Below, one piece after another: positions 4,234 to 48,561 of a stretch of 64,000 nucleotides of DNA. This stretch comes from an uncultured Methanosarcinales archaeon (GTDB lineage: Archaea > Nanobdellota > Nanobdellia > Woesearchaeales > JAHJBD01): assembly GCA_964534665.1 (NCBI GenBank), contig CAZHRT010000001.1:605-64604 (forward strand). The letters run 5' to 3'. Positions within the stretch are counted from its first letter, which is position 1, and each line of letters opens with the position of its first letter. Below the pieces are notes generated by a model that did no database searches, was not told where the DNA came from, and saw only the letters and a program-made list of their open reading frames with translations. The translations under genes were made by a program, and so were the position numbers.

Positions 4234-4318
4234 AATATAACTGAATTAAAAGAAATTTATAAATGTTATTGTGATAAATAACAATATTTATAAAATACAT
4301 TCTCCTACCCATCTTAAA

Positions 4319-4774: not shown

Positions 4775-4803
4775 ACTTTTTCTTGTCAAGAACAATTGTT
4801 ATT

Positions 4804-4832
4804 AAGCATGCTCAGAAATGATATTTCTGACA
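4804..4832 (+). repeat. Copy 1 of the GCATGC-centred palindrome plus hairpin repeat
   Basis: AAGCATGCTCAGAAATGATATTTCTGACA. The hairpin is TCAGAAAT/ATTTCTGA (8 bp, 3-nt loop). The same motif and orientation occur at 14966 and 61579. Confidence 0.7.
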
Positions 4833-4843
4833 TTTTAAAAACA

Positions 4844-4851
4844 TTTATAAA
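4844..4851 (+). promoter_or_regulatory. Putative TATA box for the tRNA at 4880
   Basis: TTTATAAA lies about 30 nt upstream of the tRNA 5' end, the spacing expected for archaeal promoters. Confidence 0.45.
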
Positions 4852-4879
4852 CAATTTATTGATTCTATTCACTTATATT

Positions 4880-5025
4880 GGGACCTTAGCTCAGACCGGG
4901 AGAGCACACGTATGAAAATACGGTTCAGTACGCTGAAGTGAATTTTAGCAACTCGGTCACGTAGGGGAAGGATGTAACGAAAGGTGCATCCTCCTAAATC
5001 GCGGATTCAAATTCCGCAGGTCCCA
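4880..5025 (+). tRNA. tRNA gene with about 72 nt of extra internal sequence (intron or introns); isotype unresolved
   Basis: Acceptor GGGACCT/AGGTCCC, D arm GCTC-AGACCGGGA-GAGC, T arm GCGGA-TTCAAAT-TCCGC. 90 nt lie between the D stem and the variable region, where 18 are expected. A GAA anticodon is possible if CACGT(4907)/ACGTA(4959) is the anticodon stem, but I could not fold a clean BHB motif. Confidence 0.75.
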
Positions 5026-5712
5026 TTTTTTTATTTTTATCAAGTGCCTTTTATTTCTAAAATAAATATATTTAAACCATAATCTAAGATTTTCTCGTCC
5101 ATTTAATCTTAAACGATATACAATTGAAGGTGATTTGAACCTCACATCGTGCCTAGTTTCTTTATAATAATTTTTTGTTAAAAATCCTTCTTGTTTCAAG
5201 AAATTAAACACTTCACTAACTAATACCTCACTCTTTGAAGTAAAACTAATTATTGGATAATCTTTCCTATAATGAATTGAACAATCAGTATCAGCTAAGC
5301 CTTTTATGAATGAGAACATATAATTTCTACTAGAATTAATCCAATTAGGAATACCAATTTGCTCTTTTCTTCCTTTCTTAAATCCTACATATACTAAATA
5401 ATTAACAAGCCCCTTTGATATTAATCTTAGGCATAGAGAGTTCTGATCTTTCTTTTTATGTGTTGTAGCAACCAAATTAAACAATTTTTTAACTAAACTT
5501 GTAACATAACTTTCTAAATAATTTTTATCTAATCTTGAGTCCCCATAAATTTCGATTAAATATTTATATTGATCAGAATAAAAATTTAAATAGCCATCTC
5601 CAGTAAGTATCCCTAAAAACTCTGCTAATTCCTTAGAAGATTGTGTTGGTAAAATTAACCCTCTTTTAATATCATTTTTGCTTAATTTGATATTTAATAA
5701 ATCAAATTTCAT
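4957..5712 (-). CDS. LAGLIDADG homing endonuclease, two-motif single-chain type
   Basis: Two LAGLIDADG-type motifs are present, LAEFLGILTGDGYL and FIKGLADTDCSI. ATG at 5712 (the tracker starts at a TTG at 5715). The last ~23 codons are read antisense through the tRNA 3' half (4957-5025). Confidence 0.85.
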   Translation of the reverse strand: MKFDLLNIKLSKNDIKRGLILPTQSSKELAEFLGILTGDGYLNFYSDQYKYLIEIYGDSRLDKNYLESYVTSLVKKLFNLVATTHKKKDQNSLCLRLISKGLVNYLVYVGFKKGRKEQIGIPNWINSSRNYMFSFIKGLADTDCSIHYRKDYPIISFTSKSEVLVSEVFNFLKQEGFLTKNYYKETRHDVRFKSPSIVYRLRLNGRENLRLWFKYIYFRNKRHLIKIKKWDLRNLNPRFRRMHLSLHPSPT

Positions 5713-5781
5713 CAATTAAGTTAACAGGTCCCCATTTAAATACCCTACGCCTACCTGTCCTGTGTCCTATGGTATAACAAG

Positions 5782-7929
5782 TTAAATACCACTCATTAAA
5801 CCAGTATCCATAATTGTAGAAGCTATTGTATTAAATAATACAATAATCACAATCGCAATAAAAGAATAAAGCACTGTACTTTTAATCATATTCTTTGCCA
5901 ACGCATTCTGCTCTCCTAATTTATCAGCACCGTTCTCAATACCATTTGCCATAACAGTTAAAATATATACAATTTGAACAACATAAAGCCCAACTATAAT
6001 CTGGAAAAAGAAAGTAGGTATGCCATCACCAAAAAGCAGAGGTATATTACTGCCCCCACTTTCCATCTGTTTCATTTGAACAGTTAATTTTCCCAAGATA
6101 TTTGTTACCATTGAAGTAATTCCAACTACTATTCCTGCAATTGCTGGCGTCAAAAACTTAATCTGAGAATTCATCGATGAAATAATCTCTGACATTAAAT
6201 CTTTAAGCCTTTCATTTACTTTATGAATTTCTTTAACATACCTTGAAACATTCATTAAAGATTCAGCAGCAATTTTAGGACCTTTTTGAATAGATTCTGT
6301 AAAGATCTTCATACTACTTTCAATAATTTTTGAAGGAAATCTTACTATCGCCCCATACTTCTTATCAAATATGGCCTCTCTAACACCCATACCCAATCGA
6401 TGAATATTATTAGTTACAACACCAAAAAACTTACCAGAAACAGTACCTTCCATTGATTGTGCAACATTTTCAACAGCCATTTCAGCTGGTACACCGTCCC
6501 CTAATCGATTACCTAATTGAAATAAAGCAGAAACAAACTCCGTCTCAAGCTTCTTAGATTTGTTCTTAACATCCATTATCCTTTTACTTTTAGTTTTATA
6601 ATAAATTCCAACTGCCAAACCAAAAGCTATTGTAATAAAAATACTTAATATAGAAGCTACAAGACCAAAAGGCCCAATCATATTATTAGAGTTTGTCATA
6701 CTTTCCCTATAACCTAAAAACGAAAATTTGCCATCCATAAACTGGACATCCCATCCAGGATTAATAGCATTGATTATTAATGGGGATAAACCAATTAAAA
6801 TAAGTATACCACCAACAAGTAAAGCTAAATACATAGGATTAACAGAATACTTTTTACCAAGAAAATTAATATCCCATTTAGTAAATTTCTTAAGTTCAGG
6901 ATTCTGTTCAGTTATATCTTCATCACCATAGCCACTAGGCCTTTTTGCAAGAATAGTTTTACCAAAATAATAAACCATAATAGGCAAAGCAACATTATAC
7001 ATTGAAGCTATATGATACCATTCAACACCTTCTAAGAAACTAACCACAAGTGGCAATACTACTAAACCAAGGATTGGTAAAATAACCCCCAACATATGTA
7101 ACATTGTAATTGGAGATTTAAGATTTTGAGCATAATGTAACATTTTTTCATATGTTCCTGATAAAATTACATCTAATGACTTATCTAAAGTTGCTAACCT
7201 TTTTTCTTCATCCCCTTCAAGCAAAGAAGATTCGATTAAATGAAAAGCTTCAATAAACTCAGAGTTATATTCCTTCCATGTTTCAAGATAATTATCTAAA
7301 CTTTCTTTTACAGATTCATACTCTTCAGTTTCAACATCCCACAAAACCTTTCTCAAATCTAAACTTAAAGGTGGTGCAAGATGCTCAGAAGCAAATTGAA
7401 CAGCACCCTCAAGGTTTGGTGTATGTCTCATATAAGTTACAACATAAAAAACACATAAAACCATTTGATTTGATGCTTTCATTCTCCAACTATTAGCAAT
7501 AAAAGCAGGCATCCTAGATAAAGGAGTTATTACAGAAGCCCCAATAGCTAAAAAGAAAAATACAAAGAAAAAAGAATTAAACAAAACATAAGAAAATAAA
7601 CTTCCAAAAAGCATAATAACTAAGGGAACTAATATTGCAAAAGACGCACTGCCTGTTGGCGTAATATTAATATGCGCAATCTTAATATGTTCTTCTATCT
7701 GTTGAGCTTTCTTCTTATCTGGTTTTATTTTAAGTAATTTTTCACTAAACCCACAAACTTTCTCATAAGTTGACAATTGTGGTGGAAGAATTTCTTTCTT
7801 AAACTGCTGATATTCAATTGATTTTACAGACTTAACTTCCTGCTTAGAACTTTCTAAAGGCCCACCTAACTGTTTATCAATCTTCTCACTAAATTCTCTC
7901 TTTAAATCACTAAAATCATCATTCCCCAT
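5782..7929 (-). CDS. Polytopic membrane platform protein, FlaJ/TadC/PilC-like (T2SS-F type domain), 715 aa
   Basis: Many TM segments, plus the cytoplasmic helical domain ETEFVSALFQLGNRLGDGVPAEMAVENVAQ..GVREAIFD typical of GspF/FlaJ repeats. It starts 1 nt after the stop of the upstream ATPase gene. Confidence 0.7.
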   Translation of the reverse strand: MGNDDFSDLKREFSEKIDKQLGGPLESSKQEVKSVKSIEYQQFKKEILPPQLSTYEKVCGFSEKLLKIKPDKKKAQQIEEHIKIAHINITPTGSASFAILVPLVIMLFGSLFSYVLFNSFFFVFFFLAIGASVITPLSRMPAFIANSWRMKASNQMVLCVFYVVTYMRHTPNLEGAVQFASEHLAPPLSLDLRKVLWDVETEEYESVKESLDNYLETWKEYNSEFIEAFHLIESSLLEGDEEKRLATLDKSLDVILSGTYEKMLHYAQNLKSPITMLHMLGVILPILGLVVLPLVVSFLEGVEWYHIASMYNVALPIMVYYFGKTILAKRPSGYGDEDITEQNPELKKFTKWDINFLGKKYSVNPMYLALLVGGILILIGLSPLIINAINPGWDVQFMDGKFSFLGYRESMTNSNNMIGPFGLVASILSIFITIAFGLAVGIYYKTKSKRIMDVKNKSKKLETEFVSALFQLGNRLGDGVPAEMAVENVAQSMEGTVSGKFFGVVTNNIHRLGMGVREAIFDKKYGAIVRFPSKIIESSMKIFTESIQKGPKIAAESLMNVSRYVKEIHKVNERLKDLMSEIISSMNSQIKFLTPAIAGIVVGITSMVTNILGKLTVQMKQMESGGSNIPLLFGDGIPTFFFQIIVGLYVVQIVYILTVMANGIENGADKLGEQNALAKNMIKSTVLYSFIAIVIIVLFNTIASTIMDTGLMSGI

Positions 7930-15648: not shown

Positions 15649-17889
15649 ATGAAACGAACACACACCTGTGGAGAATTAGATGTTAAATCTGTTGATGAAA
15701 GAATAGTTCTAAATGGTTGGGTAAATTCAAGAAGAGACCATGGTGGAGTTATATTTATTGATCTAAGAGATAGATATGGCCTTACACAAGTAGTTTTCAA
15801 TCCTAAAAATAATAAAGTTAGTCATAAAGCGGCTGAAGATTTAAGAAGAGAAGATGTTGTTCATGTTGAAGGTGTTGTCAAAAAAAGAAGTGAAGGACTT
15901 GAAAATCCAAACCTTAAAACAGGTAAAATCGAAATTTTTGTTGAAAAACTTGAAGTTCTTAATAAAGCAGAAACACCACCAATAGAAATTGACGATCGTG
16001 TTGAAGTTAATGAAGATATTGCATTAAAATATCGTTATCTAGATTTAAGAAAAACAACTTTACAAAATAATTTATTGGTTAGACATAAAGCTGCAAAAAT
16101 TACAAGAGACTATTTTGATAGTTTAGGTTTTATTGAAATTGAAACACCAGTTCTAGCTAAATCCACACCAGAAGGTGCTAGAGATTATGTTGTACCATCT
16201 AGAGTAAACCCTGGTAAGTTTTTTGCTCTACCACAATCACCACAAATTTTCAAACAATTATTAATGGTATCAGGCTTTGATAGATATTTTCAAATTGTAA
16301 AATGCTTTAGAGATGAAGATTTAAGAGCTGACAGACAACCAGAATTTACCCAGATTGATGTAGAGATGAGCTTTATCGAAGAAGAAGACATCTATACAAC
16401 AATGGAAGGTCTTATGAAAGTTGTTTGGAAAGGAATCCTAAATATCGATATTAAATTACCTTTCAAAAGAATACCTTATGACGAAGCAATGGACAAATAT
16501 GGTTCAGATAAACCTGATTTAAGGTTTGAATTAGAATTAAAAGACATTACAAAGATTGCAGAAGGTTCTGGATTTAAAGTTTTTTCAGAAACAGCAAAAA
16601 ATGGCGGTTTGATTAAAGGTATTAATGTTAAAGGTGCAGCTGAACAATTTTCAAGGAAAAAAATTGATGAATTAATTCCATTTGTAAAAATTTATGGTGC
16701 AAAAGGTCTTGCTTGGATGAAATATGACGGTAAAAAACTAGAAAGTTCAATAATCAAGTTTTTTAGTGATGAAGATCAAGAAAACATAATAAAAACACTT
16801 GATGCAAAAGCAGGCGATTTATTAGTTTTTGTTGGAGACCTTAAATCATCAATAGTACATGCATCTTTAGGTAACCTAAGAATTAAATTAGCAAAACAAT
16901 TAGGATTAATTAATGAAAAAGAATATAATTTCTGCTGGGTAACTGATTTTCCTTTATTTGAATACAATGAAGAAGAAGCAAGACATCAAGCAATGCATCA
17001 CCCATTCACTTCTCCAAAAAAAGAAGACATGGAACTTTTAGAAAAGGATCCAACTAAAGTTAAAAGCATTGCATACGATCTTACACTTAACGGTGTAGAA
17101 GTTGGTGGCGGTTCAATAAGAATTCACAAAAGAGAAATACAAGAAAAAATGTTCAAAGCATTAGGAATATCACCAGAACAAGCACAAGAAAAGTTCGGAT
17201 TCCTTTTAGAAGCTTTCAAATATGGTGCTCCACCACACGGTGGTCTAGCTTTTGGTTTTGATAGATTATGTGCACTATTAGTTAACACAGAAAATATCAG
17301 AAATGTTATTGCATTCCCAAAAACAAAATCAGCTGAAAGTTTAATGGATGATGCACCTAGTTATATTGATGACAAACAACTAAAAGAATTACATATTAAA
17401 CTTGACATTGTTAAAATGCCAGCAAAAGATGAAGTTTTTCAAAAAATCATAGATGCATTAAACAAAGATAAAATTGAAATTGAGACAATTGAACATAAAG
17501 CAGTCTTTACTTCAAAAGAAGCAGCTGAAGTTCGAGGTACAAAACCTAGTCAAGGCGTTAAAGCATTAGTTTGTAAAACAGACAAAGGGTTTTTACAAGC
17601 ATGTGTTCCTGGCGATAAAGAAATTGATTTAGATAAACTTAAAAAAGTATTACAAAGAAAAAGTGTTGAACTAGCAGCCGCTGAAGACGTTAAAAGAGTT
17701 ACAGGTTGTAGTATAGGTTCTGTTCCACCTTTTGGAAACCTTTTTGGAATTGATATTCTAATTGATAGCAAAGTAACTGAAAATAAAGAAGTTGCTTTCA
17801 ACGCAGGTTCACACACAAAATCAATTAAGATGCAAGCAAAAGATTTAGTAAAAGTTACTGGCGCTAAAGTTGCTGAGTTCTCCAAATGA
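15649..17889 (+). CDS. aspS: Aspartyl-tRNA synthetase, bacterial long type, fused to a C-terminal YbaK/ProX-like deacylase domain
   Basis: RTHTCGEL..GWV..RRDHGGVIFIDLRDRYG, FRDEDLRADRQPEFTQID and GGGSIRIH..GAPPHGGLAFGFDRL are class IIb motifs, and there is a GAD-type insertion. Residues after ~585 (GVKALVCKTDKG..GCSIGSVPPFG..AFNAGSH) look like a YbaK/INS-family domain. Confidence 0.85.
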   Translation: MKRTHTCGELDVKSVDERIVLNGWVNSRRDHGGVIFIDLRDRYGLTQVVFNPKNNKVSHKAAEDLRREDVVHVEGVVKKRSEGLENPNLKTGKIEIFVEKLEVLNKAETPPIEIDDRVEVNEDIALKYRYLDLRKTTLQNNLLVRHKAAKITRDYFDSLGFIEIETPVLAKSTPEGARDYVVPSRVNPGKFFALPQSPQIFKQLLMVSGFDRYFQIVKCFRDEDLRADRQPEFTQIDVEMSFIEEEDIYTTMEGLMKVVWKGILNIDIKLPFKRIPYDEAMDKYGSDKPDLRFELELKDITKIAEGSGFKVFSETAKNGGLIKGINVKGAAEQFSRKKIDELIPFVKIYGAKGLAWMKYDGKKLESSIIKFFSDEDQENIIKTLDAKAGDLLVFVGDLKSSIVHASLGNLRIKLAKQLGLINEKEYNFCWVTDFPLFEYNEEEARHQAMHHPFTSPKKEDMELLEKDPTKVKSIAYDLTLNGVEVGGGSIRIHKREIQEKMFKALGISPEQAQEKFGFLLEAFKYGAPPHGGLAFGFDRLCALLVNTENIRNVIAFPKTKSAESLMDDAPSYIDDKQLKELHIKLDIVKMPAKDEVFQKIIDALNKDKIEIETIEHKAVFTSKEAAEVRGTKPSQGVKALVCKTDKGFLQACVPGDKEIDLDKLKKVLQRKSVELAAAEDVKRVTGCSIGSVPPFGNLFGIDILIDSKVTENKEVAFNAGSHTKSIKMQAKDLVKVTGAKVAEFSK

Positions 17890-31749: not shown

Positions 31750-32961
31750 CTATTTATCAGCAACAATCTCTACTATATCTCCAGATTTAAGAACATGTTC
31801 TTTTCCAACAGTCATCTTTGTCTTAACATCAATAGCTCTTATGAATTTATCACCAAAATCAGTATGCAACCTATAAGCAAAACCAAGAGCAGTAGTACCA
31901 GAAGGCATCAAAAAACAATCAGGAATAACATTGCCATGCTGATCTTCAAGCTTATTAACGCCACCAGGATATAACGGAATATAATTCAACACTTCAAAAA
32001 CAGCATTATCTAATACTTGTTGAACACCTGTGGAACCAAATTTAGTTAAGATATTTTCCTTGATATAACCTAAAGCACTTTTCTGCTTATCACTAAGTTT
32101 ACTTTCACCTTTCATCAAAAAATCATTTAATCCAGGAACATATTCAATCAATCCATGTTTAGCAGCTTCTCGTAAAGCAAGTTCGCTTTCAGCAGAGCAA
32201 GCAATCAACATATGATCGGGAAATTCATTTTCAATTCTAGTAAAATTCTCAATTGCCCCTGGAACATCTATTTTATTACATGCAATAATCATAGGTTTAG
32301 TAATTTTACGTAATTCCTGAGCTAACTTAAACAAAACATCTTTATCCCATGAAGCTAAACTAGAACTATCCAAACTAAGTTTATCAATAACTCCCTTAAC
32401 CATATCTTCATCAACACCTAATCCAGATAATTGTTTACCAACAGCTTTATGCACTTCACCATGAGTTTGTTGTACTTCACGAGCAAATTTATCCCACCCT
32501 TTCTTAATTATACCTAAATACCAATAATCAAGTTCTTCTTCTAAAAATCTAATATCCTCTGCAGGATCATACTCACCAGGATTTACAGGCTCACCTTTTT
32601 CATTTGTAGTTCCTGCAATATCAACAACATGTACTAAAACATCAGCTGGCCTTAAATCATCTAAAAACTGATTCCCCATACCTTTTCCTTCATGTGCACC
32701 AGGAACTAAACCAGCAACATCAATTAATTGAATAGGTGCAAATCTCTTATCTCCAACAACAAAACCATCTCTTGGATTACTAATCTTACCAAATTGTTTA
32801 GCAGGATCATCAACTTTAACATATCCAACACCAGAATTAGGTTTAATTGTAGCGAAAGGATAATTAGCAATTTCTACTTCAGCAAGAGTTGCAGCCTTAA
32901 AAAAAGTAGATTTTCCAACATTAGCTTTACCAACAACCCCTATTAACATCTTTATCCCCAA
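31750..32961 (-). CDS. Obg-family GTPase/ATPase (YchF/OLA1- or DRG-like) with a C-terminal TGS domain
   Basis: GVVGKANVGKSTFF, YPFATIKPN, DVAGLVPGAHEGKG and NKID, with a TGS-like end (GDIVEIV). Confidence 0.85.
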   Translation of the reverse strand: MGIKMLIGVVGKANVGKSTFFKAATLAEVEIANYPFATIKPNSGVGYVKVDDPAKQFGKISNPRDGFVVGDKRFAPIQLIDVAGLVPGAHEGKGMGNQFLDDLRPADVLVHVVDIAGTTNEKGEPVNPGEYDPAEDIRFLEEELDYWYLGIIKKGWDKFAREVQQTHGEVHKAVGKQLSGLGVDEDMVKGVIDKLSLDSSSLASWDKDVLFKLAQELRKITKPMIIACNKIDVPGAIENFTRIENEFPDHMLIACSAESELALREAAKHGLIEYVPGLNDFLMKGESKLSDKQKSALGYIKENILTKFGSTGVQQVLDNAVFEVLNYIPLYPGGVNKLEDQHGNVIPDCFLMPSGTTALGFAYRLHTDFGDKFIRAIDVKTKMTVGKEHVLKSGDIVEIVADK

Positions 32962-33049
32962 TTAATTATAATACAACGAAATTTAAAAAGCTTCCTAAAA
33001 TATGAAGTATATCGAAAATTATATAAAACACCAGAATTAATATCTAATC

Positions 33050-33688
33050 ATGCCAGCACCTGAAAGGCCAAAAGATATAGTTAGTATGGATGAATTAAGT
33101 ATTAAGTATTTCGATGTATTCCATCTTAAGAATTTATACATTTCAATGCACGAATGGCTAGCAGAAGAAGGTTGGTATGGTAAAGCTGGTCCAAGAACAG
33201 GTGAACCAAAATATAAGCGTCATAGTGACATAGAAACACTATACTTTGTTAACGATTATCAAAAAGGCCTTCATAGAGGCGGAAAAGAGATGTGGATATG
33301 GTGGCGTTTATGGAAAAATGTCGCTGGTAAACGTAGCGAATATTTCAAATACCGAATAGAACTTGATTTACATGTTGAATACATGACAACTAAAGAAGTT
33401 ATGCATCAAGGGAAAAAGATGAAAGCTAATTATGGTGAAATCCAATTATGGATTAGGCCTGTTATAGAATCAACAATGCATAATAAATGGGAAAAACATT
33501 GGTTCTTAAAACACTGGGTAGATTGGTTCGAAAAAAGAATATGGAGCCAAGAAATAGAGAAAATGGAAAAAGATTTATGGCGTGAATCTTATCGTTTCCA
33601 AGGTATGATTAAACGTTATCTTGATTTAAGAACTTTTATTCCAACACCTGAATCTTTCCATCCTAAACAGTTTGGTTGGGGACATTAA
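33050..33688 (+). CDS. Hypothetical Trp-rich protein, 212 aa
   Basis: 14 Trp in 212 residues (my count), clustered as MWIWWRLW and KWEKHWFLKHWVDWFEKRIW. No family recognised. Confidence 0.6.
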   Translation: MPAPERPKDIVSMDELSIKYFDVFHLKNLYISMHEWLAEEGWYGKAGPRTGEPKYKRHSDIETLYFVNDYQKGLHRGGKEMWIWWRLWKNVAGKRSEYFKYRIELDLHVEYMTTKEVMHQGKKMKANYGEIQLWIRPVIESTMHNKWEKHWFLKHWVDWFEKRIWSQEIEKMEKDLWRESYRFQGMIKRYLDLRTFIPTPESFHPKQFGWGH

Positions 33689-33716
33689 AAAAAGAATACA
33701 AAACATTTTAGTAATC

Positions 33717-33724
33717 TTTTTAAA
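33717..33724 (+). promoter_or_regulatory. Putative TATA box for tRNA-Thr
   Basis: TTTTTAAA lies 25-32 nt upstream of the tRNA 5' end. Confidence 0.4.
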
Positions 33725-33748
33725 CACATATTTAATTCTATAATTTAT

Positions 33749-33821
33749 GCCTCCGTAGCATAGTAGCTATTGCGTGGGATTTGTAATCCCAAGGTCGCGA
33801 GTGCAACTCTCGCCGGAGGCT
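33749..33821 (+). tRNA. tRNA-Thr (anticodon UGU), intron-less, with atypical D and T loops
   Basis: Folded by hand: acceptor GCCTCCG/CGGAGGC, anticodon arm TGGGA-TTTGTAA-TCCCA, variable AGGTC, T arm GCGAG-TGCAACT-CTCGC. 73 nt, with no encoded CCA. Confidence 0.8.
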
Positions 33822-33913
33822 CTCTTTTTTCTTTCGAGTTTAACGAGAAAGCTTTTGAGGGTTGATACAGGGCAAACTGCCCTTATTGCTGGCTCCGCCG
33901 GAGGCTCTCTTTT
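33822..33913 (+). other. tRNA-trailing two-hairpin element ending in an exact 18-nt repeat of the tRNA 3' end
   Basis: CGCCGGAGGCTCTCTTTT occurs at 33811-33828 and again at 33896-33913. Hairpin 1 is CTTTC/GAAAG with loop GAGTTTAACGA (33831-33851). Hairpin 2 is AGGGCA/TGCCCT (33869-33883). Confidence 0.7.
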
Positions 33914-33950
33914 CACAAATTTTAAATAAACATCAATTCTGAATAAATAT

Positions 33951-34265
33951 ATGAAAAAAGGTGTATGTGTTCTTTGTGGATATGTATTTTACTTATTATT
34001 TCTCTTCTTAATACCAATATTCACAATATGCACAGATTGTGCAACTGAAAAAAACCAATTATTGGTAAAAGATATTACAACAAAACCTGGAAATAACCTA
34101 ACTTTAGATTATTCAGCTTATAATCAAGATTCTAATCCAAAAGTAAATTGTAAAAATCTAAGAATTACAGAAAATAAAATACCAAATAACACTAAAACAG
34201 GTAAATACAATTGCACATTATCAATTGACAACCTAAAAAAAGATTTCTTTATTACAGTAAAGTAA
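33951..34265 (+). CDS. Small secreted or membrane-anchored protein
   Basis: An N-terminal hydrophobic segment is followed by an Asn/Thr/Lys-rich, beta-like domain. Confidence 0.5.
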
Positions 34266-34306
34266 ACTTTTTAAACAATCATCCTATCCTAAAACCTGGT
34301 GATAAA

Positions 34307-34930
34307 ATGAATATAATATTTTTAGGCCCGCCAGGAGCAGGCAAAGGAACAATAGCACAACAAATTGTAAATGATTTAAATATTCCACAAATCTCAACAG
34401 GAGATTTATTAAGAGCAGCTGTTAAAGAAGGAACAGAATTAGGTATGAAAGCTAAAGAATACATGGATTCTGGTCAATTAGTACCAGATGATTTAGTAAT
34501 TAACATGCTTAAAGAAAGAATTAAAAAAAATGATTGTCAAAACGGATTTATTCTTGATGGTTTTCCAAGAACAATTCCTCAAGCAGAAGCTTTAGATCAA
34601 GCCGGAATTAAGATTGATAAAACAATTAACTTTCAAGTTTCAGATGAATTAGTTATCCATAGAATTACTGGTAGACGTACTTCAAAAGAAACAGGTAAAA
34701 TCTACAATATCTATCCAGATTGTGCCCCTAATCCACCAAAAGGACATCCAGAAGAAGATTTGCTTCAAAGAGATGATGATAATGAAGAAGTTGTCAACAA
34801 AAGGTTAATACAATATCGTGAACAAACAGAACCTTTGATTGGATTCTATAAAGAAAAGGGTTTGTTAGTAGATATTAATGCGACAGAACCTCTTGATAAG
34901 ATTGTTACTGCAGTAAAAGACAATATTTAA
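34307..34930 (+). CDS. adk: Adenylate kinase
   Basis: The P-loop is [13 protein letters not shown], with ISTGDLLR and [10 protein letters not shown]. The LID lacks the Cys4 zinc site. Confidence 0.93.
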
Positions 34931-35946
34931 GGAAATTTTCTTTTTTCTTTTTCTAATATTTTTTTATACCTTTCAAAAGATTCATCTGCAAGCATTGAAA
35001 GACCGTCTTCTGATAGTCCAAGGTCTTCTGGAGTTAGTAATGATGCATGTTTTAGATTAGATGTTGAACCATATCTTAACGATTTAAATGACCTAAATGT
35101 AACAACCAGATCTCTTGTTGTATTTGCCCCTTCATGCCTAGCAAAAAGGTTTTCACCAGAAAAAGATTCAGGACCCATATTTTCTGTTAAACTCCTTAAA
35201 CTTTGTAACATTAAAACTGAAAATCCCTTCTCTTCATATCCTCCAAAAAGCATATATCCACCAAACCTTTCTTGATGTAAAGTATTGCTCCACATCATAA
35301 CTAAAGGTTCTGCCAAAACTTCACCACGACTATTTACTATTGGTGTTCTTGTATCATGCATATATTCCCTATAATGTTGTGGATAATGATCCCTTAATTC
35401 AGTAACATAATCATCTAAGTGCGCTAAACAAACTGAAGCAGCAGTAAATACATCTGTTCTTCCACCATAATCTTTAACAAATCTTGGAGAAAGAGTTCTT
35501 GATAATCTTAATGCCCGCCTTTCTTGATCATCTCTCCCTTTATGCTTTCCAAGTGAAACATGTGTAGCAATGTTCCATAATATCTTAGTTGCTATCATCC
35601 TTCCAATAGAATACCCATCTCTTCTCATTAAAGTTGCACCATCTTTATCTCTCAATACATGGTCAATTATTCCATCAAATTCTTCATTTTTCCATGGTAA
35701 CTTGAGATCAGTTGTTGGTATATCATCTGTTTTTGTATCCCACGAAACCATGTCTCTTGGTAAATATAAAAAACCCTTATCATATGTTAAACCAGGTGTT
35801 TCTTTTCCACTCCCACCAAGCAAAGAAAGATCTTGAAGCCCAAGTCTAGACCACATAGTGTCATACATTGCAGTAAATACATCTCTTACTATTCTACTCT
35901 TAGTTATATCCTCTTGCAGCCCTGCATAATCTATTACGTTTGCCAT
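34927..35946 (-). CDS. Hypothetical protein, 339 aa, compositional outlier
   Basis: Long ORF that is relatively Lys-poor except for its last ~15 residues, and rich in Arg, Asp, Gly, His and Met. Its stop overlaps the adk stop by 4 nt. No family recognised. Confidence 0.7.
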
Positions 35947-36048
35947 AAAATCATCTAAGAACCCCTTTTTAACAATTAATAAGAATCTATTAAATATAAA
36001 CTTAATTCTACTTAAGAATATACTTTATAACACAAAAATAGAGATTTT

Positions 36049-37020
36049 CTAACTAAAAATATTTCTCAAAACTTCAGTTGCATAATTCCCAGGACCTAAT
36101 ATAAACGTTAAAACAGCTTTATATTTTTGATTTAATATATCTTTTCCAACTTGTTTTAGTTGAAGATTAGTAATTGACATTATTTTTTTTCTTTCTGTGC
36201 CTTCAGAACTTAACTCAGGAAATTCTCGAATAACAAAATCTCTAAGCCCAATATTTTCTTTTTTCATTATTTCTTCAATAATCTCTTTAGAATCGTAATC
36301 ATCTAATTCTGTACCAAAACCAACAACAGGAATTTTCTCATCTTCACCAGAATATTTAATTAATGTTTGATTAAATATTTTAGATTGATAAGCACTTACA
36401 AATAGTTTCAATATCTTTTTGTTAACTTTTCTTAGTGCCCCTACAAAATCATTTTCATGAATCTTTAAATAATTAGCAACTTCTTTCTCATAATCACCAT
36501 CATTTTCTAGCATTAACTCTACTGCTTGCTTAAAATCTCTTTTAACAATAGCCTTGCCAACTTCAGAATTATTTCTTGAGAACCTTTGTTCACCAAAAGA
36601 ATTAAGAATTTTCATTTCTTTTTTCAATTTAATATCTAATAAATCAAGCTCTTCTTTTATTAAATTTCTAACAGTAATCTCAAAACTATTTCCAAATAGA
36701 TTACCTAATGATATAGGTTTATTACCAAAACCTACAACTTCAATCTCAATATCTTTTAATTTTATTTGCTCTAAAAGATCTTTAGGTATGTCTTTTACAG
36801 AAACCATTTGTTCTGTTAATGCAACTTTATCTTTATTACCTGCAAAACCAAATCTTTTAACAGGGATTCTCAATCTCTCTGCAATCCTTTGAAGGGCAGT
36901 AACAGTATTATAATTCTTTTTTTTCAAAATAAAATAAGTAAATTGTCCAACCTTCCCAAATTCAACATTACTAACTTCTTTAACAATAAAATCCTCAGGT
37001 ATTTGTTTTATAGTATACAT
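36049..37020 (-). CDS. truD: tRNA pseudouridine synthase D (TruD/Pus7 family)
   Basis: IPEDFIVKEV at the N-terminus and FGFAGNKDKVALTEQ (GxKD catalytic Asp motif). Confidence 0.85.
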   Translation of the reverse strand: MYTIKQIPEDFIVKEVSNVEFGKVGQFTYFILKKKNYNTVTALQRIAERLRIPVKRFGFAGNKDKVALTEQMVSVKDIPKDLLEQIKLKDIEIEVVGFGNKPISLGNLFGNSFEITVRNLIKEELDLLDIKLKKEMKILNSFGEQRFSRNNSEVGKAIVKRDFKQAVELMLENDGDYEKEVANYLKIHENDFVGALRKVNKKILKLFVSAYQSKIFNQTLIKYSGEDEKIPVVGFGTELDDYDSKEIIEEIMKKENIGLRDFVIREFPELSSEGTERKKIMSITNLQLKQVGKDILNQKYKAVLTFILGPGNYATEVLRNIFS

Positions 37021-37041
37021 AATCCTCGATAAAACAAAAAC

Positions 37042-37049
37042 TTATAAAA
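37042..37049 (+). promoter_or_regulatory. Putative TATA box for the tRNA at 37075
   Basis: TTATAAAA lies 26-33 nt upstream of the tRNA 5' end. Confidence 0.4.
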
Positions 37050-37074
37050 AGATATCTTTAATTCTGGAGAGTAT

Positions 37075-37203
37075 GCGCCTGTAGCTCAGCTTGGATAGAG
37101 CGATAGTAGAGCTATTTTCTACCGCGAATGCCTCCTAGTTGAGTGGTTTTGCTCCACACAAGAAGTAAGCAATAGGTCCGGAGTTCGAATCTTCGCAGGC
37201 GCG
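37075..37203 (+). tRNA. tRNA gene with about 54 nt of extra internal sequence; isotype unresolved
   Basis: Acceptor GCGCCTG/CAGGCGC, D arm GCTC-AGCTTGGATA-GAGC, variable AGGTC, T arm CGGAG-TTCGAAT-CTTCG. 72 nt lie where 18 are expected. Candidate anticodon loops are TTTCTAA (UCU) and CTCCACA (CCA), and I could not decide by eye. Confidence 0.75.
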
Positions 37204-37290
37204 TTCTTGTCCTACTGAGTTAAGCGAAGTAGGACTTAATTCTCTACGAGTGTGCGTGAACGCATAAGTTCCAGCATCTTCGCAAGCGCG
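37204..37290 (+). other. tRNA-trailing two-hairpin element ending in a 15-nt (14/15) repeat of the tRNA 3' end
   Basis: ATCTTCGCAGGCGCG (37189-37203) compares with ATCTTCGCAAGCGCG (37276-37290). Hairpin 1 is GTCCTACT/AGTAGGAC with loop GAGTTAAGCGA (37209-37235). Hairpin 2 is TGCG-TGAA-CGCA (37253-37264). Confidence 0.7.
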
Positions 37291-37335
37291 CTTTTATCTT
37301 AACCTTTTTATACTAAAAACTATTTTACTGCCTAT

Positions 37336-37512
37336 ATGGGAAAAAGTCAAGTTATTTTAGGAATAATTCTAATGGTAATTGGTGCAGCACTAGAATTGAT
37401 CCCAATAATTGGCTGGATCTATGGAACATTCTTATTTCTAACAGGATTATTTCTAATTATTTATAGAAAAGAAGAGGATAAAATCGAAAAAATTCGGAGG
37501 ACAAAAAAATGA
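37336..37512 (+). CDS. Small two-TM membrane protein, 58 aa, missing from the ORF track
   Basis: My hand translation is MGKSQVILGIILMVIGAALELIPIIGWIYGTFLFLTGLFLIIYRKEEDKIEKIRRTKK. Its TGA stop overlaps the ATG of the next gene (ATGA). Confidence 0.55.
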   Translation: MGKSQVILGIILMVIGAALELIPIIGWIYGTFLFLTGLFLIIYRKEEDKIEKIRRTKK

Positions 37513-37823
37513 TAATAACAACAACAGAAAACATACCAGGAAAACAAATAGTCCAAACATTAGGAATTGTACAAGGAAATACTGTAAGAACCAAGCATAT
37601 AGGAAAAGATTTCATGGCTGGTCTTAAAACAATTGTTGGTGGAGAAATTAAAGGCTATACAGACATGCTTACACAAGCTAGAACTGAAAGCTACAACAGG
37701 ATGGTTAATGAAGCAACAAAGCTTGGAGCAGATGCAATAATTTGTATGAGATTTACAACATCTCAGGTTATGCAAAACGCAGCAGAAATTCTAGCTTTTG
37801 GTACAGCTGTTAAATTACAGTAA
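37509..37823 (+). CDS. YbjQ/UPF0145 family protein
   Basis: ITTTENIPGK..IVQGNTVR...GGEIKGYT..L..AR..A..RM...A..LGADAII..RF matches the family over its full length. Confidence 0.85.
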   Translation: MIITTTENIPGKQIVQTLGIVQGNTVRTKHIGKDFMAGLKTIVGGEIKGYTDMLTQARTESYNRMVNEATKLGADAIICMRFTTSQVMQNAAEILAFGTAVKLQ

Positions 37824-37825
37824 TT

Positions 37826-38023
37826 TTATTTTTTATTTTTCTGTGCAAGATAAGCAAAAAACGATACTACCATACCAAGTATTGCAAAAGCCCATACAAT
37901 ATTTGTAATATGTACAAGATATTCTTTTGCAAAGATTAAAACTACCACTACCATAGATAAAACAATCCCTCCAAAAACTGCCGATATTGCAACAAATGGA
38001 TTTCCTTCTGGACATTTCTTCAT
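37826..38023 (-). CDS. Small membrane protein, 65 aa
   Basis: Two hydrophobic helices. An alternative overlapping frame in the track is less hydrophobic and was rejected. Confidence 0.45.
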   Translation of the reverse strand: MKKCPEGNPFVAISAVFGGIVLSMVVVVLIFAKEYLVHITNIVWAFAILGMVVSFFAYLAQKNKK

Positions 38024-38092
38024 ATTATCACCAATTCCAATTATTAAAGAAATAGTATAAAAAATTAACTAAAAAAGAAAGAAAAAAAGAAA

Positions 38093-40708
38093 TTACTTTT
38101 CTTTTAATGCAGCCTGTGCAGCAGCTAAACGAGCGATTGGCACCCTAAATGGTGAACATGATACTTCATCAAGTCCAATCTTATGGCAAAACTCAACAGA
38201 TGTTGGTTCTCCACCGTGTTCTCCACAAATACCAATATGTATCTTTGGATTAACTTTTTTAGCAAGCTCAATACACTGTATCATAATCTTTCCAACACCT
38301 TCTTGGTCAATTGCTTGGAAAGGGTCTCTATCATAGATCCCTTTTGCAACATATTCACCAAGGAAAGCACCTGCATCATCTCTTGAAAAGCCACAAGTCA
38401 TCTGGGTTAGATCATTTGTTCCAAAGCTCATGAAGTCAGCGTCTGCTGCAAACTCATCTGCAGTTAATGCAGCACGAGGAACTTCAATCATTGTTCCAAT
38501 TTTATAATCAACCTTACCTTCAACTTCAAGTTCCTTAGCAGCAGCTTCAATGATTTCTTTTATCATCAAATATTCTTTTGCATTACCTGCAAGAGGAACT
38601 TCAATCCAAGGAATTGGCTTACTTTCTCCAGAAACAGCAATTGCTGCTTTAAAGATTGCTTTTGCCTGCATCTTAGTAATCTCAGGATATCTAACACCTA
38701 ACCTACATCCACGAAATCCAAGCATTGGGTTAAATTCATGAAGTGAAGTAATCTTATCCTTAAGTTTATCTGCAGTAACTCCAAGTTCAGCTGCAACTTC
38801 TTCAATATCTTTAGCTGCTGTTGGTAAGAATTCGTGTAATGGAGGATCCAAAAGCCTAACAATAACAGGCAGGTTATCCATTACTTTAAACAAACCTTCA
38901 AAATCTGCTTGCTGCATTGGTTCTAGTTTTGCTAAAGCTTTTTCTCTGCCTTCCAAATCATCTGAAAGTATCATTTCTCTAACAGCTTTAATCCTATCAC
39001 CTTCAAAGAACATGTGCTCTGTTCTACATAGACCAATACCTTCTGCTCCAAACTTCTTAGCAACTTCAGCATCGTGTGGTGTATCTGCATTAGTCTTAAC
39101 CAAAATGGTCCTATACTTATCAGCCCATTCCATCAATTTTTCAAAATCACCTGAAAGTTCAGGATCAATTACTGGAACTTCGCCTTTGATAACTTCACCA
39201 GTTGCACCATCTAATGTTAAAGCGTCTCCCTCTTTTAATTCTACATCACCAACCTTAAAACAACAAGCATCTTCATTAATTACAACATCTGCACATCCTG
39301 CAACACAACATTTACCCATTCCTCTAGCAACAACTGCTGCGTGTGAAGTCATTCCGCCTCTGGAAGTTAAAATACCCATAGCAGCGTTCATACCTTCAAT
39401 GTCTTCAGGTGAAGTTTCTGTTCTACAAAGAATTACTTTTTTACCTTCCTGTGCAAGCTCATGAGCTTTTTCAGCCGTAAATACTATTTCTCCAACAGCA
39501 GCACCAGGTGAAGCTGGAAGACCTTTAGCAATAACTTCTGCTTTTTGTTTTCCAATTGGATCAAGCTGTTTATGTAATAACTGATCTAACTGCTCTGGAG
39601 CAACACGAAGAACCGCTGTCTTCTCATCAATCATACCGTCATTAACCATTTCAACTGCAATTCTAACAGCTGCAGCTGCGGTTCTCTTACCAGTTCTTGT
39701 CTGTAAAATATACAATTTACCTTCTTGGATTGTAAACTCCATGTCCTGCATATCTTTGTAATGATCTTCTAATTTTAAGTAGATATCAACCAATTCTTTA
39801 TAATTATCGGCCATAACTTCATTTAACTGTTCAATTGGCTGTGGTGTTCTAATACCAGCAACAACATCTTCACCTTGTGCATTCATTAAATATTCACCAT
39901 AGAACTTGTTCTCGCCAGTTGAAGGGTTTCTTGTAAAACAAACACCAGTACCAGAAGTTTCACCCATGTTACCAAAAACCATTGTCTGAACATTAACTCC
40001 AGTTCCAAGTAGACCAGTAATGTGGTTTAACCTTCTGTAAGTAATTGCTCTTTTATTATCCCATGAATCAAATACTGCATTTATTGAAAGTTTCAATTGT
40101 TCACGTGGGTCATCTGGAAAACTCTTTCCAGCATGCTCTTGAATAACTGCTTTATAAGCTTCAACTACTGCTTTTAGATCATTTGCATCAAGATCTGTAT
40201 CAATTTCAACGCCTTTAGTTGCCTTAACATTATCAAGTGCTTCTTCAAAGAATTTGTGTTCAACGCCCATAACAACGTCTCCAAACATTTGAATAAACCT
40301 TCTATAAGCATCATATGCAAATCTTTCATTACCTGTTTTCTTTGCCATTCCTGCAACAGAATTATCATTTAAACCCAAATTAAGAACAGTATCCATCATT
40401 CCTGGCATGGATACAGCAGCTCCGCTTCTGACACTAACCAATAATGGATTTGCAGGGTCCCCAAGTTTAGCACCCATCTTTTCTTCAAGCTGTACTAATT
40501 TAGCTTCAATTTCTTCTTTCATACCTTCTGGGTATTTTTGTCCTAATTTATTATATTCCCCACAAGCTTCTGTTGTAATTGTAAATCCTGGTGGTACTGG
40601 TACACCCAAAGTTGTCATTTCAGATAAGTTAGCACCTTTGCCACCTAACAATTCTTTCATCTCTTTTTTCCCATCTTCAAAGGAATAAACCCATTTATTT
40701 TCAGTCAT
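38093..40708 (-). CDS. ppdK: Pyruvate, phosphate dikinase
   Basis: GGKGANL, the phosphohistidine loop GGMTSHAAVVARG, GLCRTEHMF and a PEP-utilising TIM barrel with FSFGTNDLTQ-type motif (MSFGTNDLTQM). Confidence 0.95.
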   Translation of the reverse strand: MTENKWVYSFEDGKKEMKELLGGKGANLSEMTTLGVPVPPGFTITTEACGEYNKLGQKYPEGMKEEIEAKLVQLEEKMGAKLGDPANPLLVSVRSGAAVSMPGMMDTVLNLGLNDNSVAGMAKKTGNERFAYDAYRRFIQMFGDVVMGVEHKFFEEALDNVKATKGVEIDTDLDANDLKAVVEAYKAVIQEHAGKSFPDDPREQLKLSINAVFDSWDNKRAITYRRLNHITGLLGTGVNVQTMVFGNMGETSGTGVCFTRNPSTGENKFYGEYLMNAQGEDVVAGIRTPQPIEQLNEVMADNYKELVDIYLKLEDHYKDMQDMEFTIQEGKLYILQTRTGKRTAAAAVRIAVEMVNDGMIDEKTAVLRVAPEQLDQLLHKQLDPIGKQKAEVIAKGLPASPGAAVGEIVFTAEKAHELAQEGKKVILCRTETSPEDIEGMNAAMGILTSRGGMTSHAAVVARGMGKCCVAGCADVVINEDACCFKVGDVELKEGDALTLDGATGEVIKGEVPVIDPELSGDFEKLMEWADKYRTILVKTNADTPHDAEVAKKFGAEGIGLCRTEHMFFEGDRIKAVREMILSDDLEGREKALAKLEPMQQADFEGLFKVMDNLPVIVRLLDPPLHEFLPTAAKDIEEVAAELGVTADKLKDKITSLHEFNPMLGFRGCRLGVRYPEITKMQAKAIFKAAIAVSGESKPIPWIEVPLAGNAKEYLMIKEIIEAAAKELEVEGKVDYKIGTMIEVPRAALTADEFAADADFMSFGTNDLTQMTCGFSRDDAGAFLGEYVAKGIYDRDPFQAIDQEGVGKIMIQCIELAKKVNPKIHIGICGEHGGEPTSVEFCHKIGLDEVSCSPFRVPIARLAAAQAALKEK

Positions 40709-48280: not shown

Positions 48281-48561
48281 CTCTAGGCAAGCTAGGCTGG
48301 CAGGTTAGCCCTCTGTTGTTACCATCAACGGGCTTTAGGTGGAGTCGAAGCTTGGTAAGAGGTATAAACTTAGTTTATCAGTCTCTGTATGGACGTTGAA
48401 ATTCTGTCCTATAGGATTGATATCTTAAGGAACCGCGCCAGGGCAGGAATGCAGCAACGCTAACTTCTGATATTGATGCTTATAGGGTAGCGGAATTGAG
48501 GAAATATAGGGGTAGCTGGTCTTCTTTGTTTGTATCCATTATCAAGCGTGCTTGCCTACTT
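48281..48561 (+). ncRNA. Signal recognition particle RNA (archaeal 7S)
   Basis: A GC-enriched ~280-nt island with no ORF. CGCCAGGGCAGGAATGCAGCAACGC matches the helix-8 pattern CGCCAGG-NNN-GGAA-NNN-AGCAACG that I recall from methanogen 7S RNA. The terminal helix is TAGGCAAGC (48284-48292) with GCTTGCCTA (48550-48558). Confidence 0.8.

Follow-up and report, generated by a model that had tools for sequence, protein, structure and literature searches.

Duplicated tRNA gene ends in Woesearchaeota-like DPANN archaea: a candidate family of very small, hairpin-bearing insertions

A stretch of 64,000 nucleotides (nt) of archaeal DNA (contig CAZHRT010000001.1 of assembly GCA_964534665.1; hereafter called the window) carries, directly behind two of its tRNA genes, a short unit with two hairpins that ends in a second copy of the 3′ end of the respective tRNA. 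We can conclude that this 85-nt unit is a DNA insertion, which is neither a part of the tRNA nor an intron. Related loci, denoted here by L numbers, were fetched via the proteins flanking the two tRNAs, and eight family members (E1–E6, E8, and E9) were found in five related archaeal genomes, all of them having a first hairpin whose loop follows the pattern GA-R-N5-Y-GA. They are best read as a family of very small insertions at tRNA gene ends in Woesearchaeota-like DPANN archaea. All copies share a polar layout, in which the tRNA body is followed by a repeat, termed X, then by hairpin 1, a spacer, a GC-rich hairpin 2, 5-12 nt, and X again. The repeat consists of the last 13-20 nt of the particular tRNA gene (in an element on the 5′ side, the first) together with a few flanking bases. 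Viruses and plasmids classically land in tRNA genes, which in archaea contain many introns as well; how these introns arise is a long-standing question.

The element behind the tRNA-Thr(UGU) gene (E1; coordinates of all features are given in Table 1) was originally predicted from the DNA sequence on the basis of an exact 18-nt repeat of the tRNA end, which is borne out with a spacing of 85 nt. The 18-mer CGCCGGAGGCTCTCTTTT occurs at exactly two sites in the window even when two mismatches are allowed, and its chance expectation is 0, none of 100 shuffles containing any match with up to two mismatches. The CTCTTTT segment in the proximal copy is the beginning of a T6 run, the expected archaeal transcription terminator. 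Both hairpins that had been placed between the two copies are present at the predicted positions, and the loop of hairpin 1, GAGTTTAACGA, is readable as tandem G·A/A·G plus a G-C pair and a pentaloop, which would make it K-loop-like. The GGCTCCG segment ahead of the distal copy, which had been taken for a near copy of the 5′ acceptor strand, is also present, at 33891-33897, but more plausibly belongs to a degenerate T-loop and T-stem copy (TGCTGGCTCCGCC vs TGCAACTCTCGCC); a stretch matching the pattern at 33887-33895 recurs in the remaining 3′ elements. Taken alone, the 74-nt E1 body has a fold energy that is not unusual (z = −0.99), and the structural case therefore rests on the comparison between copies and not on energy.

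The T-loop of the window tRNA-Thr, UGCAACU, is unusual. Position 55 is U (pseudouridine 55) in almost all tRNAs. The tRNA-Thr(UGU) of this clade has T-loops of the form UGCAAYU or UGCGAUU with G55, as seen in the window (33802-33808), L001, L003, L081, L082, L088, L090, L092-L094, L238, L241, and L243, and the tRNA-Thr of the more distant loci L002 and L085 has the normal T-loop UUCAAAU.

The same architecture had been predicted behind another tRNA at position 37204, and it was found there in an element (E3) that follows the plan of the tRNA-Thr locus behind an intron-containing tRNA-Arg(CCU). This gene is missed by ARAGORN, including its intron mode, and by Rfam at the gathering threshold; ARAGORN calls tRNA-Arg(CCU) once both introns are removed, with the cloverleaf complete at 37203. 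The intron at 28/29 was located by hand, and that at 37/38 was recovered by a scanner for bulge-helix-bulge (BHB) motifs with a score of 9. Brute-force removal of single segments and the intron mode of ARAGORN were uninformative, and the gene was solved by hand and then verified with ARAGORN. The tRNA end ATCTTCGCAGGCGCG is repeated 87 nt downstream with one mismatch, and a 17-nt spacer separates the two hairpins. The G68-to-A change in the distal X would disrupt the acceptor pair C5-G68. The pattern GAGTTNNNCGA matches only the E1 and E3 sites in the window. A pairing of GCGAAG in an E3 hairpin with CTTCGC of X was considered and rejected, as it is not conserved among the other elements.

Copies beyond the two in the window, a search for which had been proposed originally, were recovered from the related genomes with a simple scanner for a T-arm and an acceptor stem, which was combined with a test for copies of tRNA ends. 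A scan of a genome collection with the adenylate kinase of the window returned mostly bacteria, the gene being of bacterial type, and a metagenome scan gave 14 loci. Copies of a tRNA end matching at least 10 of 12 positions occurred on the expected side only, and the wrong-side control reached a maximum of 9/12. Rfam confirms the tRNA boundaries in L001, L003, and L245. In 379 kb of archaeal loci the strict hairpin-1 motif adjoins tRNA ends only, and a relaxed pattern is unspecific (45 matches vs ~30 in shuffles); elements are marked only by a strict loop that has a good stem and lies in intergenic DNA. Two scans of IMG/VR with the hairpin-1 module yielded only chance matches in unrelated contexts.

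The family members range from 67 to 133 nt in size, and the repeat period is 84-87 nt in five of the eight copies and 103-148 nt in the remaining ones. In the 3′ elements, the edge of X lies in the T-loop, at about position 54-59, and X usually includes the oligo-T terminator. The proximal X completes a perfect tRNA, and the distal X is slightly degenerate. A change at position 67/68 breaks an acceptor pair in the distal copies of E3, E4, and E9, and the distal copies of E4 and E9 also have a G73-to-A change, which indicates that the distal copy is not the functional end. Except for E3, the 3′ elements (six of seven) have a T4-T6 run directly behind the tRNA, and most tRNA transcripts should thus end before hairpin 1. 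In E8 (L237 10794-10841), part of the tRNA-Arg end is present a third time (ATCCTTCGCAACC), ahead of hairpin 1 and behind the tRNA, suggesting a nested or repeated insertion.

Table 1. Family members and features of the tRNA loci discussed in the text. Positions without a locus name refer to the window.
Feature	Position	Strand	Remarks
E1	window		tRNA-Thr, 3′ side
E2	L001 9194-9267		tRNA-Thr, 3′ side; orthologous copy of E1
E3	window		tRNA-Arg, 3′ side
E4	L001		tRNA-Arg, 3′ side
E5	L003		tRNA-Arg, 3′ side
E6	L003		tRNA-Thr, 5′ side, inverted
E8	L237		tRNA-Arg, 3′ side
E9	L245		tRNA-Arg, 3′ side
tRNA-Thr(UGU)	33749-33821	+	intact, no intron; 3′ end at 33821 or 33822; ARAGORN; Rfam RF00005, 63.8 bits
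E1, proximal X	33811-33828	+	last 11 nt of tRNA-Thr + CTCTTTT
E1 body	33822-33895	+	74 nt from the tRNA end; 67 nt with the repeat taken as 18 nt
E1 hairpin 1	33831-33851	+	CTTTC/GAAAG, 5-bp stem, family-defining loop GAGTTTAACGA
E1 spacer	33852-33868	+	contains GGGTTGATAYA, conserved among E1, E2, and E4
E1 hairpin 2	33869-33883	+	AGGGCA-AAC-TGCCCT; L001 differs in the loop only
E1, degenerate copy of tRNA-Thr T-loop and T-stem 3′ strand	33887-33895	+	TGCTGGCTC vs TGCAACTCT
E1, distal X	33896-33913	+	then the original flank CACAAATTTT, to which the L001 flank is homologous
tRNA-Arg(CCU)	37075-37203	+	two BHB introns: 37105-37128 (28/29) and 37138-37167 (37/38)
E3, proximal X	37189-37203	+	ATCTTCGCAGGCGCG, tRNA positions 59-73
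E3 body	37204-37275	+	72 nt; missing from the closest relative, L218
E3 hairpin 1	37209-37235	+	8-bp stem, loop GAGTTAAGCGA
E3 hairpin 2	37253-37264	+	TGCG-TGAA-CGCA, extendable by U-A and G·U pairs
E3, degenerate T-loop-like stretch	37265-37275	+	TAAGTTCCAGC vs GAGTTCGA
E3, distal X	37276-37290	+	ATCTTCGCAAGCGCG; then CTTTTAT
Third window tRNA	4880-5025	+	several introns; acceptor GGGACCT/AGGTCCC-A; probably Phe GAA, by hand; missed by ARAGORN and Rfam
LAGLIDADG_3 (homing-endonuclease-like) open reading frame	4957/5068-5712	−	directly behind the third tRNA
Archaeal signal recognition particle RNA	48285-48557		Rfam, 138.8 bits

A comparison of related loci, which had been proposed as a way to define the boundaries of the insertion, revealed empty sites in L218, L243, and others, with the edges exactly at the repeat. 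The closest relative is L218, which shares 88% identity with the window in TruD and 100% in the 75 nt ahead of tRNA-Arg; the first intron of its tRNA-Arg has a 5-nt insertion relative to the window. In this relative the tRNA-Arg end ATCTTCGCAGGCGCG runs straight into CTTTTTAT, whereas the window has an additional 72-nt body and 15-nt repeat, after which the CTTTTAT flank resumes. Because the L218 flank resumes exactly where the distal copy of the window ends, the difference represents a precise insertion/deletion polymorphism. The L001 sequence beyond the distal copy (TTCTTTTCAAAGATTAAC) is also homologous to the L218 flank directly after the tRNA. Empty sites were further seen at ten other tRNA-Arg(CCU) loci and at most tRNA-Thr loci, among them L243, whose tRNA-Thr T-arm is the same as that of the window. 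Polymorphism within a population was not found; eight contigs from different samples with identical TruD carry identical E1 and E3. At the place of E3, L218 (reverse strand 1409-1868) has a cysteine-rich open reading frame (ORF) of 129 amino acids on the opposite strand, and a TTCGCA just before the shared flank AACCTTTTTATA is a possible decayed remnant of the tRNA end.

Closely related bodies are also found behind different tRNAs. In L001, E4 at tRNA-Arg shares with E1/E2 at tRNA-Thr the segments TCTTTTCTTTCGAG-N5-CGAGAAAGC...GGGTTGATAT, hairpin 2, and TTAT. The bodies are thus nearly the same, yet each terminates in the end of its own tRNA, and E4 has two extra hairpins. The bodies at the tRNA-Arg(CCU) site (E3, E4, E9, and E5/E8) differ in stem sequence and length. 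E5 and E8 share 81% identity, and each of the two hairpins shows compensatory changes between them. Presence/absence at a site and multiple related copies, as expected of an element comparable to a miniature inverted-repeat transposable element (MITE), were both found.

The original proposal that the duplicated target is the tRNA's 3′ end applies to seven elements but not to E6, which is inverted and lies at the 5′ end. E6 is placed between the promoter and the tRNA-Thr body in L003, antisense to the tRNA, and 15 nt of the tRNA-Thr 5′ end recur without mismatch 84 nt upstream. When read on the minus strand, it consists of X (CTATGCTACGGAGGCAT), 1 nt, hairpin 1 (GTGCCATAT-GAGCACAGCGA-ATATGGTAC), 8 nt, hairpin 2 (CACTTTCTT-GGA-AAGAAAGTG), 5 nt, and X. 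The element is polar, with hairpin 1 always towards the tRNA body, and either gene end is usable. Since the acceptor stem forms an inverted repeat, X ends in CGGAGGC in both E1 and E6. The duplication has its inner edge in the T-loop in the 3′ elements and in the D-loop (minus strand) in E6. Two further inserts bounded by a 5′ repeat, with different bodies, are present in L085 and L247. Furthermore, L245 (3167-3260) and L247 (5905-5985) have a gapped copy of the tRNA-Thr 3′ end ~57 nt behind the gene (CTCTGCAAGGGGCTT vs CTCTCCAGGGGCTT); this insert has an A-rich body with no hairpins and may be another kind of end-duplicating insert.

The eight aligned hairpin-1 sequences have G6, A7, A12, G15, and A16 invariant, and compensatory changes occur in all six stem pairs. 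The proportion of paired cells is 95.8%, compared to 59.6% in shuffles, and none of 500 shuffles reached the observed pairing or covariation score; slid controls were 28-50% paired. The stems were chosen by eye, which favours pairing, yet they directly flank the conserved loop in independent copies. Loop positions 3 and 9 covary. Judged from these sequences, the loop can be read as tandem sheared G·A/A·G pairs, an R:Y pair, and a pentaloop with a conserved A, which would correspond to the K-loop sequence pattern. The wobble pairs in the stems (hairpin 1 of E6; hairpin 2 of E4 and E3) are all G·T on the top strand of the element, with no A·C, which may be a weak hint in favour of a single-stranded form of the top strand.

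On balance, we consider it somewhat probable that the family represents a non-autonomous, strand-specifically structured insertion element, which is aimed at tRNA T-loops or D-loops and keeps the gene intact by duplicating its end. Of the options raised originally, a mobile element that duplicates the tRNA 3′ end is thus the best supported, by the empty sites, the related bodies behind different tRNAs, the conserved and covarying hairpin 1, and the eight members in five genomes, with the corrections that the duplication starts in the T-loop and that a 5′ inverted copy also exists. Insertion would take place in the loop of the T-arm (3′ elements, about 54-59) or in the loop of the D-arm (5′ element, on the other strand), and the target may be the stem-loop adopted by single-stranded tRNA-gene DNA. 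An insertion in the loop would destroy the tRNA; the survivors would be those events that left a complete end beside the tRNA body. The repeat could originate as a long target-site duplication by staggered joining of the Cas1/casposase-like type, which is favoured because the same body occurs behind different tRNAs. It could also be the identity block of a site-specific recombination of the attachment-site (att) type in the T-loop, which is favoured because partial similarity reaches into the T-loop. The one-strand G·T wobbles and the covarying stems suggest that the active form is probably single-stranded DNA or an RNA copy, which would be recognised by a recombinase supplied in trans.

Several observations weigh against such an element. 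Genes for a transposase, an integrase, or Cas1 were not found with or near any copy in Pfam scans and neighbouring gene tables, nor was an autonomous relative with the same ends, and terminal inverted repeats are absent, a scan of E1 and E3 giving internal hairpin arms only. The repeat length varies over 13-20+ nt; this variation and the missing terminal inverted repeats are both unlike a single classical transposase. The similarity of the X copies fades inward, with 49/56 matching positions in the acceptor strand and discriminator, 27/35 in the T-stem 3′ strand, and 29/49 in the T-loop. Such a gradual fall-off is not what a clean target-site duplication or a clean att core predicts. E1 and E2 are ~90% identical, compared to 77-82% for the neighbouring proteins, and their substitutions avoid the stems. 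This conservation, together with fixation in the eight contigs, looks like purifying selection on a host or RNA function and not like decaying selfish DNA. The number of copies is also low, with just two within the 64-kb window.

The duplicated ends could also be explained as integration scars, in which a tyrosine integrase of a virus or plasmid recombined in the T-loop and the cargo was later deleted, so that attL, a remnant, and attR remain; the hairpins would then be leftover arm or terminator sequences, and the elements would be immobile by themselves. A repeat extending from the T-loop to the 3′ end matches what is classically termed the 'T-loop sublocation' of integrase att sites (Williams 2002, cited in PMC9897764), and the copies agree perfectly close to the 3′ end but only in part within the T-loop, as attP arms do. 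The lack of a mobility gene inside the elements also agrees with a scar, as does variable cargo at such sites, namely the 129-aa gene in L218 and, at the third tRNA of the window, a LAGLIDADG gene with a partial end copy. However, random deletion should leave random remnants, whereas the eight independent copies keep the two-hairpin order, the invariant loop, and the covarying stems, and five of them the period of 84-87 nt. A near-identical body at two tRNAs with different repeats is not predicted by a site-specific attP, and an integrase fragment is absent, so that we regard a scar as rather unlikely. Long-range repeats signalling a large integrated element were not found within the related loci compared. 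A functional small RNA would account for other features: hairpin 1 would be a K-loop bound by L7Ae, and a transcript derived from the trailer or made independently would pair its tail X with the tRNA 5′ acceptor strand and be released by RNase Z. The invariant G6, A7, G15, and A16 fit the K-loop sequence pattern, the stems covary with sense-strand wobbles that are all G·U, E1/E2 are conserved above the flanking proteins, and the tail X is complementary to the tRNA 5′ acceptor strand in both the 3′ and 5′ types. There is no T-run between the tRNA and E3, which makes read-through likely, and dicistronic tRNA-sRNA (small RNA) units and 'mobile' sRNA genes are known in the related archaeon Nanoarchaeum equitans (PMC3491384). 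The option of a co-transcribed small RNA, which was also among those raised originally, is nevertheless weakened by the T4-T6 terminator runs ahead of six of the seven 3′ copies and by E6, which is antisense to its tRNA and lacks an obvious promoter. In addition, the close relatives L218 and L243 have no element, C/D boxes are absent, an H/ACA-like reading of E1 fails in E2 and E3, X has no partner inside the element, and no Rfam match was obtained at E ≤ 10; a small RNA is accordingly doubtful.

Two further explanations were considered. If it were an unusual intron or an alternative 3′ exon, the splicing endonuclease would excise the 85-nt unit, join the tRNA body to the distal copy, and release a circular RNA. 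The host does use non-canonical BHB introns, sister lineages have T-loop BHB introns at 59/60 (L247, L086, and L089), exactly at the repeat start, and the two E1 copies can form a symmetric pseudo-BHB, GGA-GGCU-[CUC]-UUU. However, the tRNAs are complete without splicing (tRNA-Thr scores 63.8 bits with the element outside), and the pseudo-BHB of E1 is rich in G·U and is lost in L001. No acceptable BHB exists at repeat-consistent positions in E3, E4, and E9, as judged by a scan and by a hand check against the L247/L089 template, and the acceptor mismatches of the distal copies (67/68 and 73) would give a worse tRNA. The intron or alternative-exon reading is very improbable and already largely refuted. 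A decayed tandem duplication of the tRNA, in which the ~85-nt period would correspond to tRNA length plus a spacer, can be given hardly any credence: five of the eight periods do fall within 84-87 nt, but upstream of the T-loop nothing resembles the tRNA, the introns bring the tRNA-Arg gene to 129 nt, the same body stands behind different tRNAs (alignment of E1/E2 with E4), and the other periods are 103-148 nt.

The original statement that no described family matches agrees with the Rfam and literature searches; in Rfam 15, only tRNAs match at E ≤ 10 over 32000-39000 of the window and at E ≤ 1 over L001, L003, and L245. Several known classes do not fit. A C/D box sRNA is excluded by the lack of RUGAUGA/CUGA boxes. 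In E1, an upper stem, a K-loop, a U-rich pocket, and an ACA 15 nt after the stem could make up an H/ACA guide, but E2 has ATA and an altered pocket, and E3 has neither pocket nor ACA. A classical MITE does not fit, since terminal inverted repeats are missing and the repeats are variable at 13-20+ nt and not fixed at 2-10 bp. The 72-74-nt bodies lack an ORF as well as terminal inverted repeats and are not casposons, and Cas1 is absent from the 39 window ORFs scanned by Pfam.

Insertions by integrases and their defective att-flanked derivatives, such as cis-mobilizable elements (CIMEs), also leave the tRNA intact, with a direct repeat from the T-loop to the 3′ end and a distal copy that is a non-functional fragment, and integrase-less derivatives of them exist. 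All seven 3′ elements show a duplication of the kind by which an integrase-type integrative element (att duplication in a tRNA gene) is recognised. In contrast, the whole element here measures 67-133 nt, has no gene, and contains a conserved strand-specific two-hairpin core; related bodies bear different tRNA ends, and in E6 the duplication covers the 5′ end as far as the D-loop, with the orientation inverted. The elements have no ORF, and Pfam scans of neighbouring genes and the neighbouring gene tables gave no integrase. The casposon AciBoo-C1 of Aciduliprofundum boonei targets the 3′ end of a tRNA gene in a fixed orientation, using a T-loop segment as an upstream recognition element and producing a 15-bp duplication, and the duplication made by the casposase adjoins the T-loop segment of tRNA-Pro (PMC5137440). 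The tRNA 3′-end target, the long duplication, and the orientation fixed relative to the tRNA have parallels in the present elements, whereas casposons are large, encode cas1 and polB, have terminal inverted repeats, and overlap the tRNA by only 5 bp. The duplication of the present elements is similar to that of the casposon in length (15-18 nt) and place, but it covers 11-15 nt of the tRNA instead of 5, and its left edge is fuzzy. To our knowledge, casposons have not been reported in this clade.

The palindrome-associated transposable elements (PATEs) of the IS200/IS605 type and the repetitive extragenic palindromes with their associated tyrosine transposases (REP/RAYT) are likewise small, without terminal inverted repeats, and bear subterminal hairpins on one strand; in the present elements, hairpin 1 and hairpin 2 lie about 5-10 nt and about 5-12 nt, respectively, from the ends of the element body. 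However, those elements insert beside a 4-5-nt motif without duplication, whereas a 13-20-nt repeat is always present here. A shared motif at the element junctions was not found, nor was TnpA. A Y1 (RAYT-type) transposase is reported to be the only transposase among the KEGG orthology (KO) entries in 256 Nanobdellota proteomes (preprint 10.64898/2026.05.13.725050). By analogy, such an enzyme would suit hairpin-bearing single-stranded substrates, but RAYT/Y1 enzymes make no duplication. The dicistronic tRNA-sRNA units and 'mobile' C/D sRNA genes of N. equitans are comparable in having a structured unit directly 3′ of a tRNA in a DPANN archaeon, a kink-turn-type G·A/A·G motif, and a suggested mobility (PMC3491384). 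In contrast, C/D and C′/D′ boxes as well as a guide region are missing from the present elements, tRNA and element are usually separated by a terminator, and the flanking tRNA-end duplication and the antisense copy have no counterpart in N. equitans. T-loop and D-loop BHB introns occur at the same tRNA positions in sister lineages and are of similar size (48 nt in tRNA-Arg of L247), but they have a BHB motif, show no exon duplication, and need splicing, whereas the elements lack a BHB, leave the tRNA complete, and are located outside its mature sequence. Collectively, the elements are best filed as tRNA-targeting mobile DNA of a new miniature, non-autonomous, strand-specifically structured type.

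Other inserts and introns were observed at these tRNA loci. A hairpin element of the E1/E3 type is absent at the third window tRNA (4880-5025). A partial copy of the 3′ end of this tRNA, CAGGTCCC(C)ATTT, is located at 5725-5737, 12 nt beyond the ATG of the LAGLIDADG ORF, and the site thus has the layout of tRNA, insert, and end copy with a cargo of ~700 bp; the 8-mer also occurs at window position 3030, and the repeat is only moderately significant. In L251/L252, which are orthologous to window 4300-5800, a LAGLIDADG gene with 59% identity lies between GTGGA+TTCAAAA and TTCGAAT+TCCAC. For this split T-arm of L251, no BHB was detected by script and no matching 3′ acceptor strand was found in 5.7 kb; the arrangement may reflect a dead gene, a split tRNA, or an intron of giant size. 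LAGLIDADG-type ORFs are also found near the same tRNAs in L237 (9238-9882, 5′ of tRNA-Thr), in L249 (7173-8126, the same as in L250, between the conserved promoter region and tRNA-Arg(CCU)), and in L245 (987-2135); the window and L237 proteins are 30% identical (E = 1e-24). True T-loop BHB introns at 59/60 with a central helix TTCA/TGAA are present in tRNA-Arg(CCU) of L247 (6733-6838, 48 nt) and in tRNA-Thr of L086 and L089. Judging from these cases, non-canonical introns, homing-endonuclease cassettes, and insertions that duplicate a tRNA end may be related results of DNA inserting into tRNA stem-loops. A bolder and quite improbable idea is that the elements and the non-canonical tRNA introns are two states of one process, in which a landing of foreign DNA in the T-loop (58-60) or D-loop is tolerated via end duplication and then either lost or turned into an intron by loss of the proximal copy and evolution of a BHB, the reverse path being also possible. 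The T-loop introns at the repeat boundary (L247, L086, and L089), the intact third tRNA with its end copy in the window, and the split T-arm in L251 are compatible with such a process.

The window is identified as archaeal by its signal recognition particle RNA, has a GC content of ~31%, and its proteins are closest to 'Nanoarchaeota/Woesearchaeota' metagenome bins. The neighbourhood of the two elements is ordinary chromosome, with an Obg-like GTPase, a conserved 212-aa ORF, tRNA-Thr, adenylate kinase, TruD, tRNA-Arg, YbjQ, and PPDK. The adenylate kinase (34307-34930) is of bacterial type; its best genome matches are mostly bacteria at 47-57% identity with few Methanosarcinales, and the matches include four DPANN-like archaeal loci (L001-L003 and L017), suggesting an old transfer into this archaeal clade. 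At 15649-17889, an aspartyl-tRNA synthetase-like protein (tRNA-synt_2 and a bacterial GAD domain) is fused to a C-terminal tRNA_edit domain of the YbaK/ProX type.

If the elements are mobile as proposed here, a gene-free unit of ~70 nt would be the smallest known player among tRNA-targeting elements, and it would point to a recombination activity in DPANN archaea, in which mobile elements are almost unknown. The elements also yield tRNA-fragment 'ghosts' and long leaders or trailers, which confuse tRNA annotation, and two of the three window tRNAs are missed by standard tools. Should a link to the T-loop introns and split T-arms be true, the origin of archaeal tRNA introns and split tRNAs would become directly testable, and the two-state process, if true, would provide a concrete route for intron gain and gene splitting in archaeal tRNAs.

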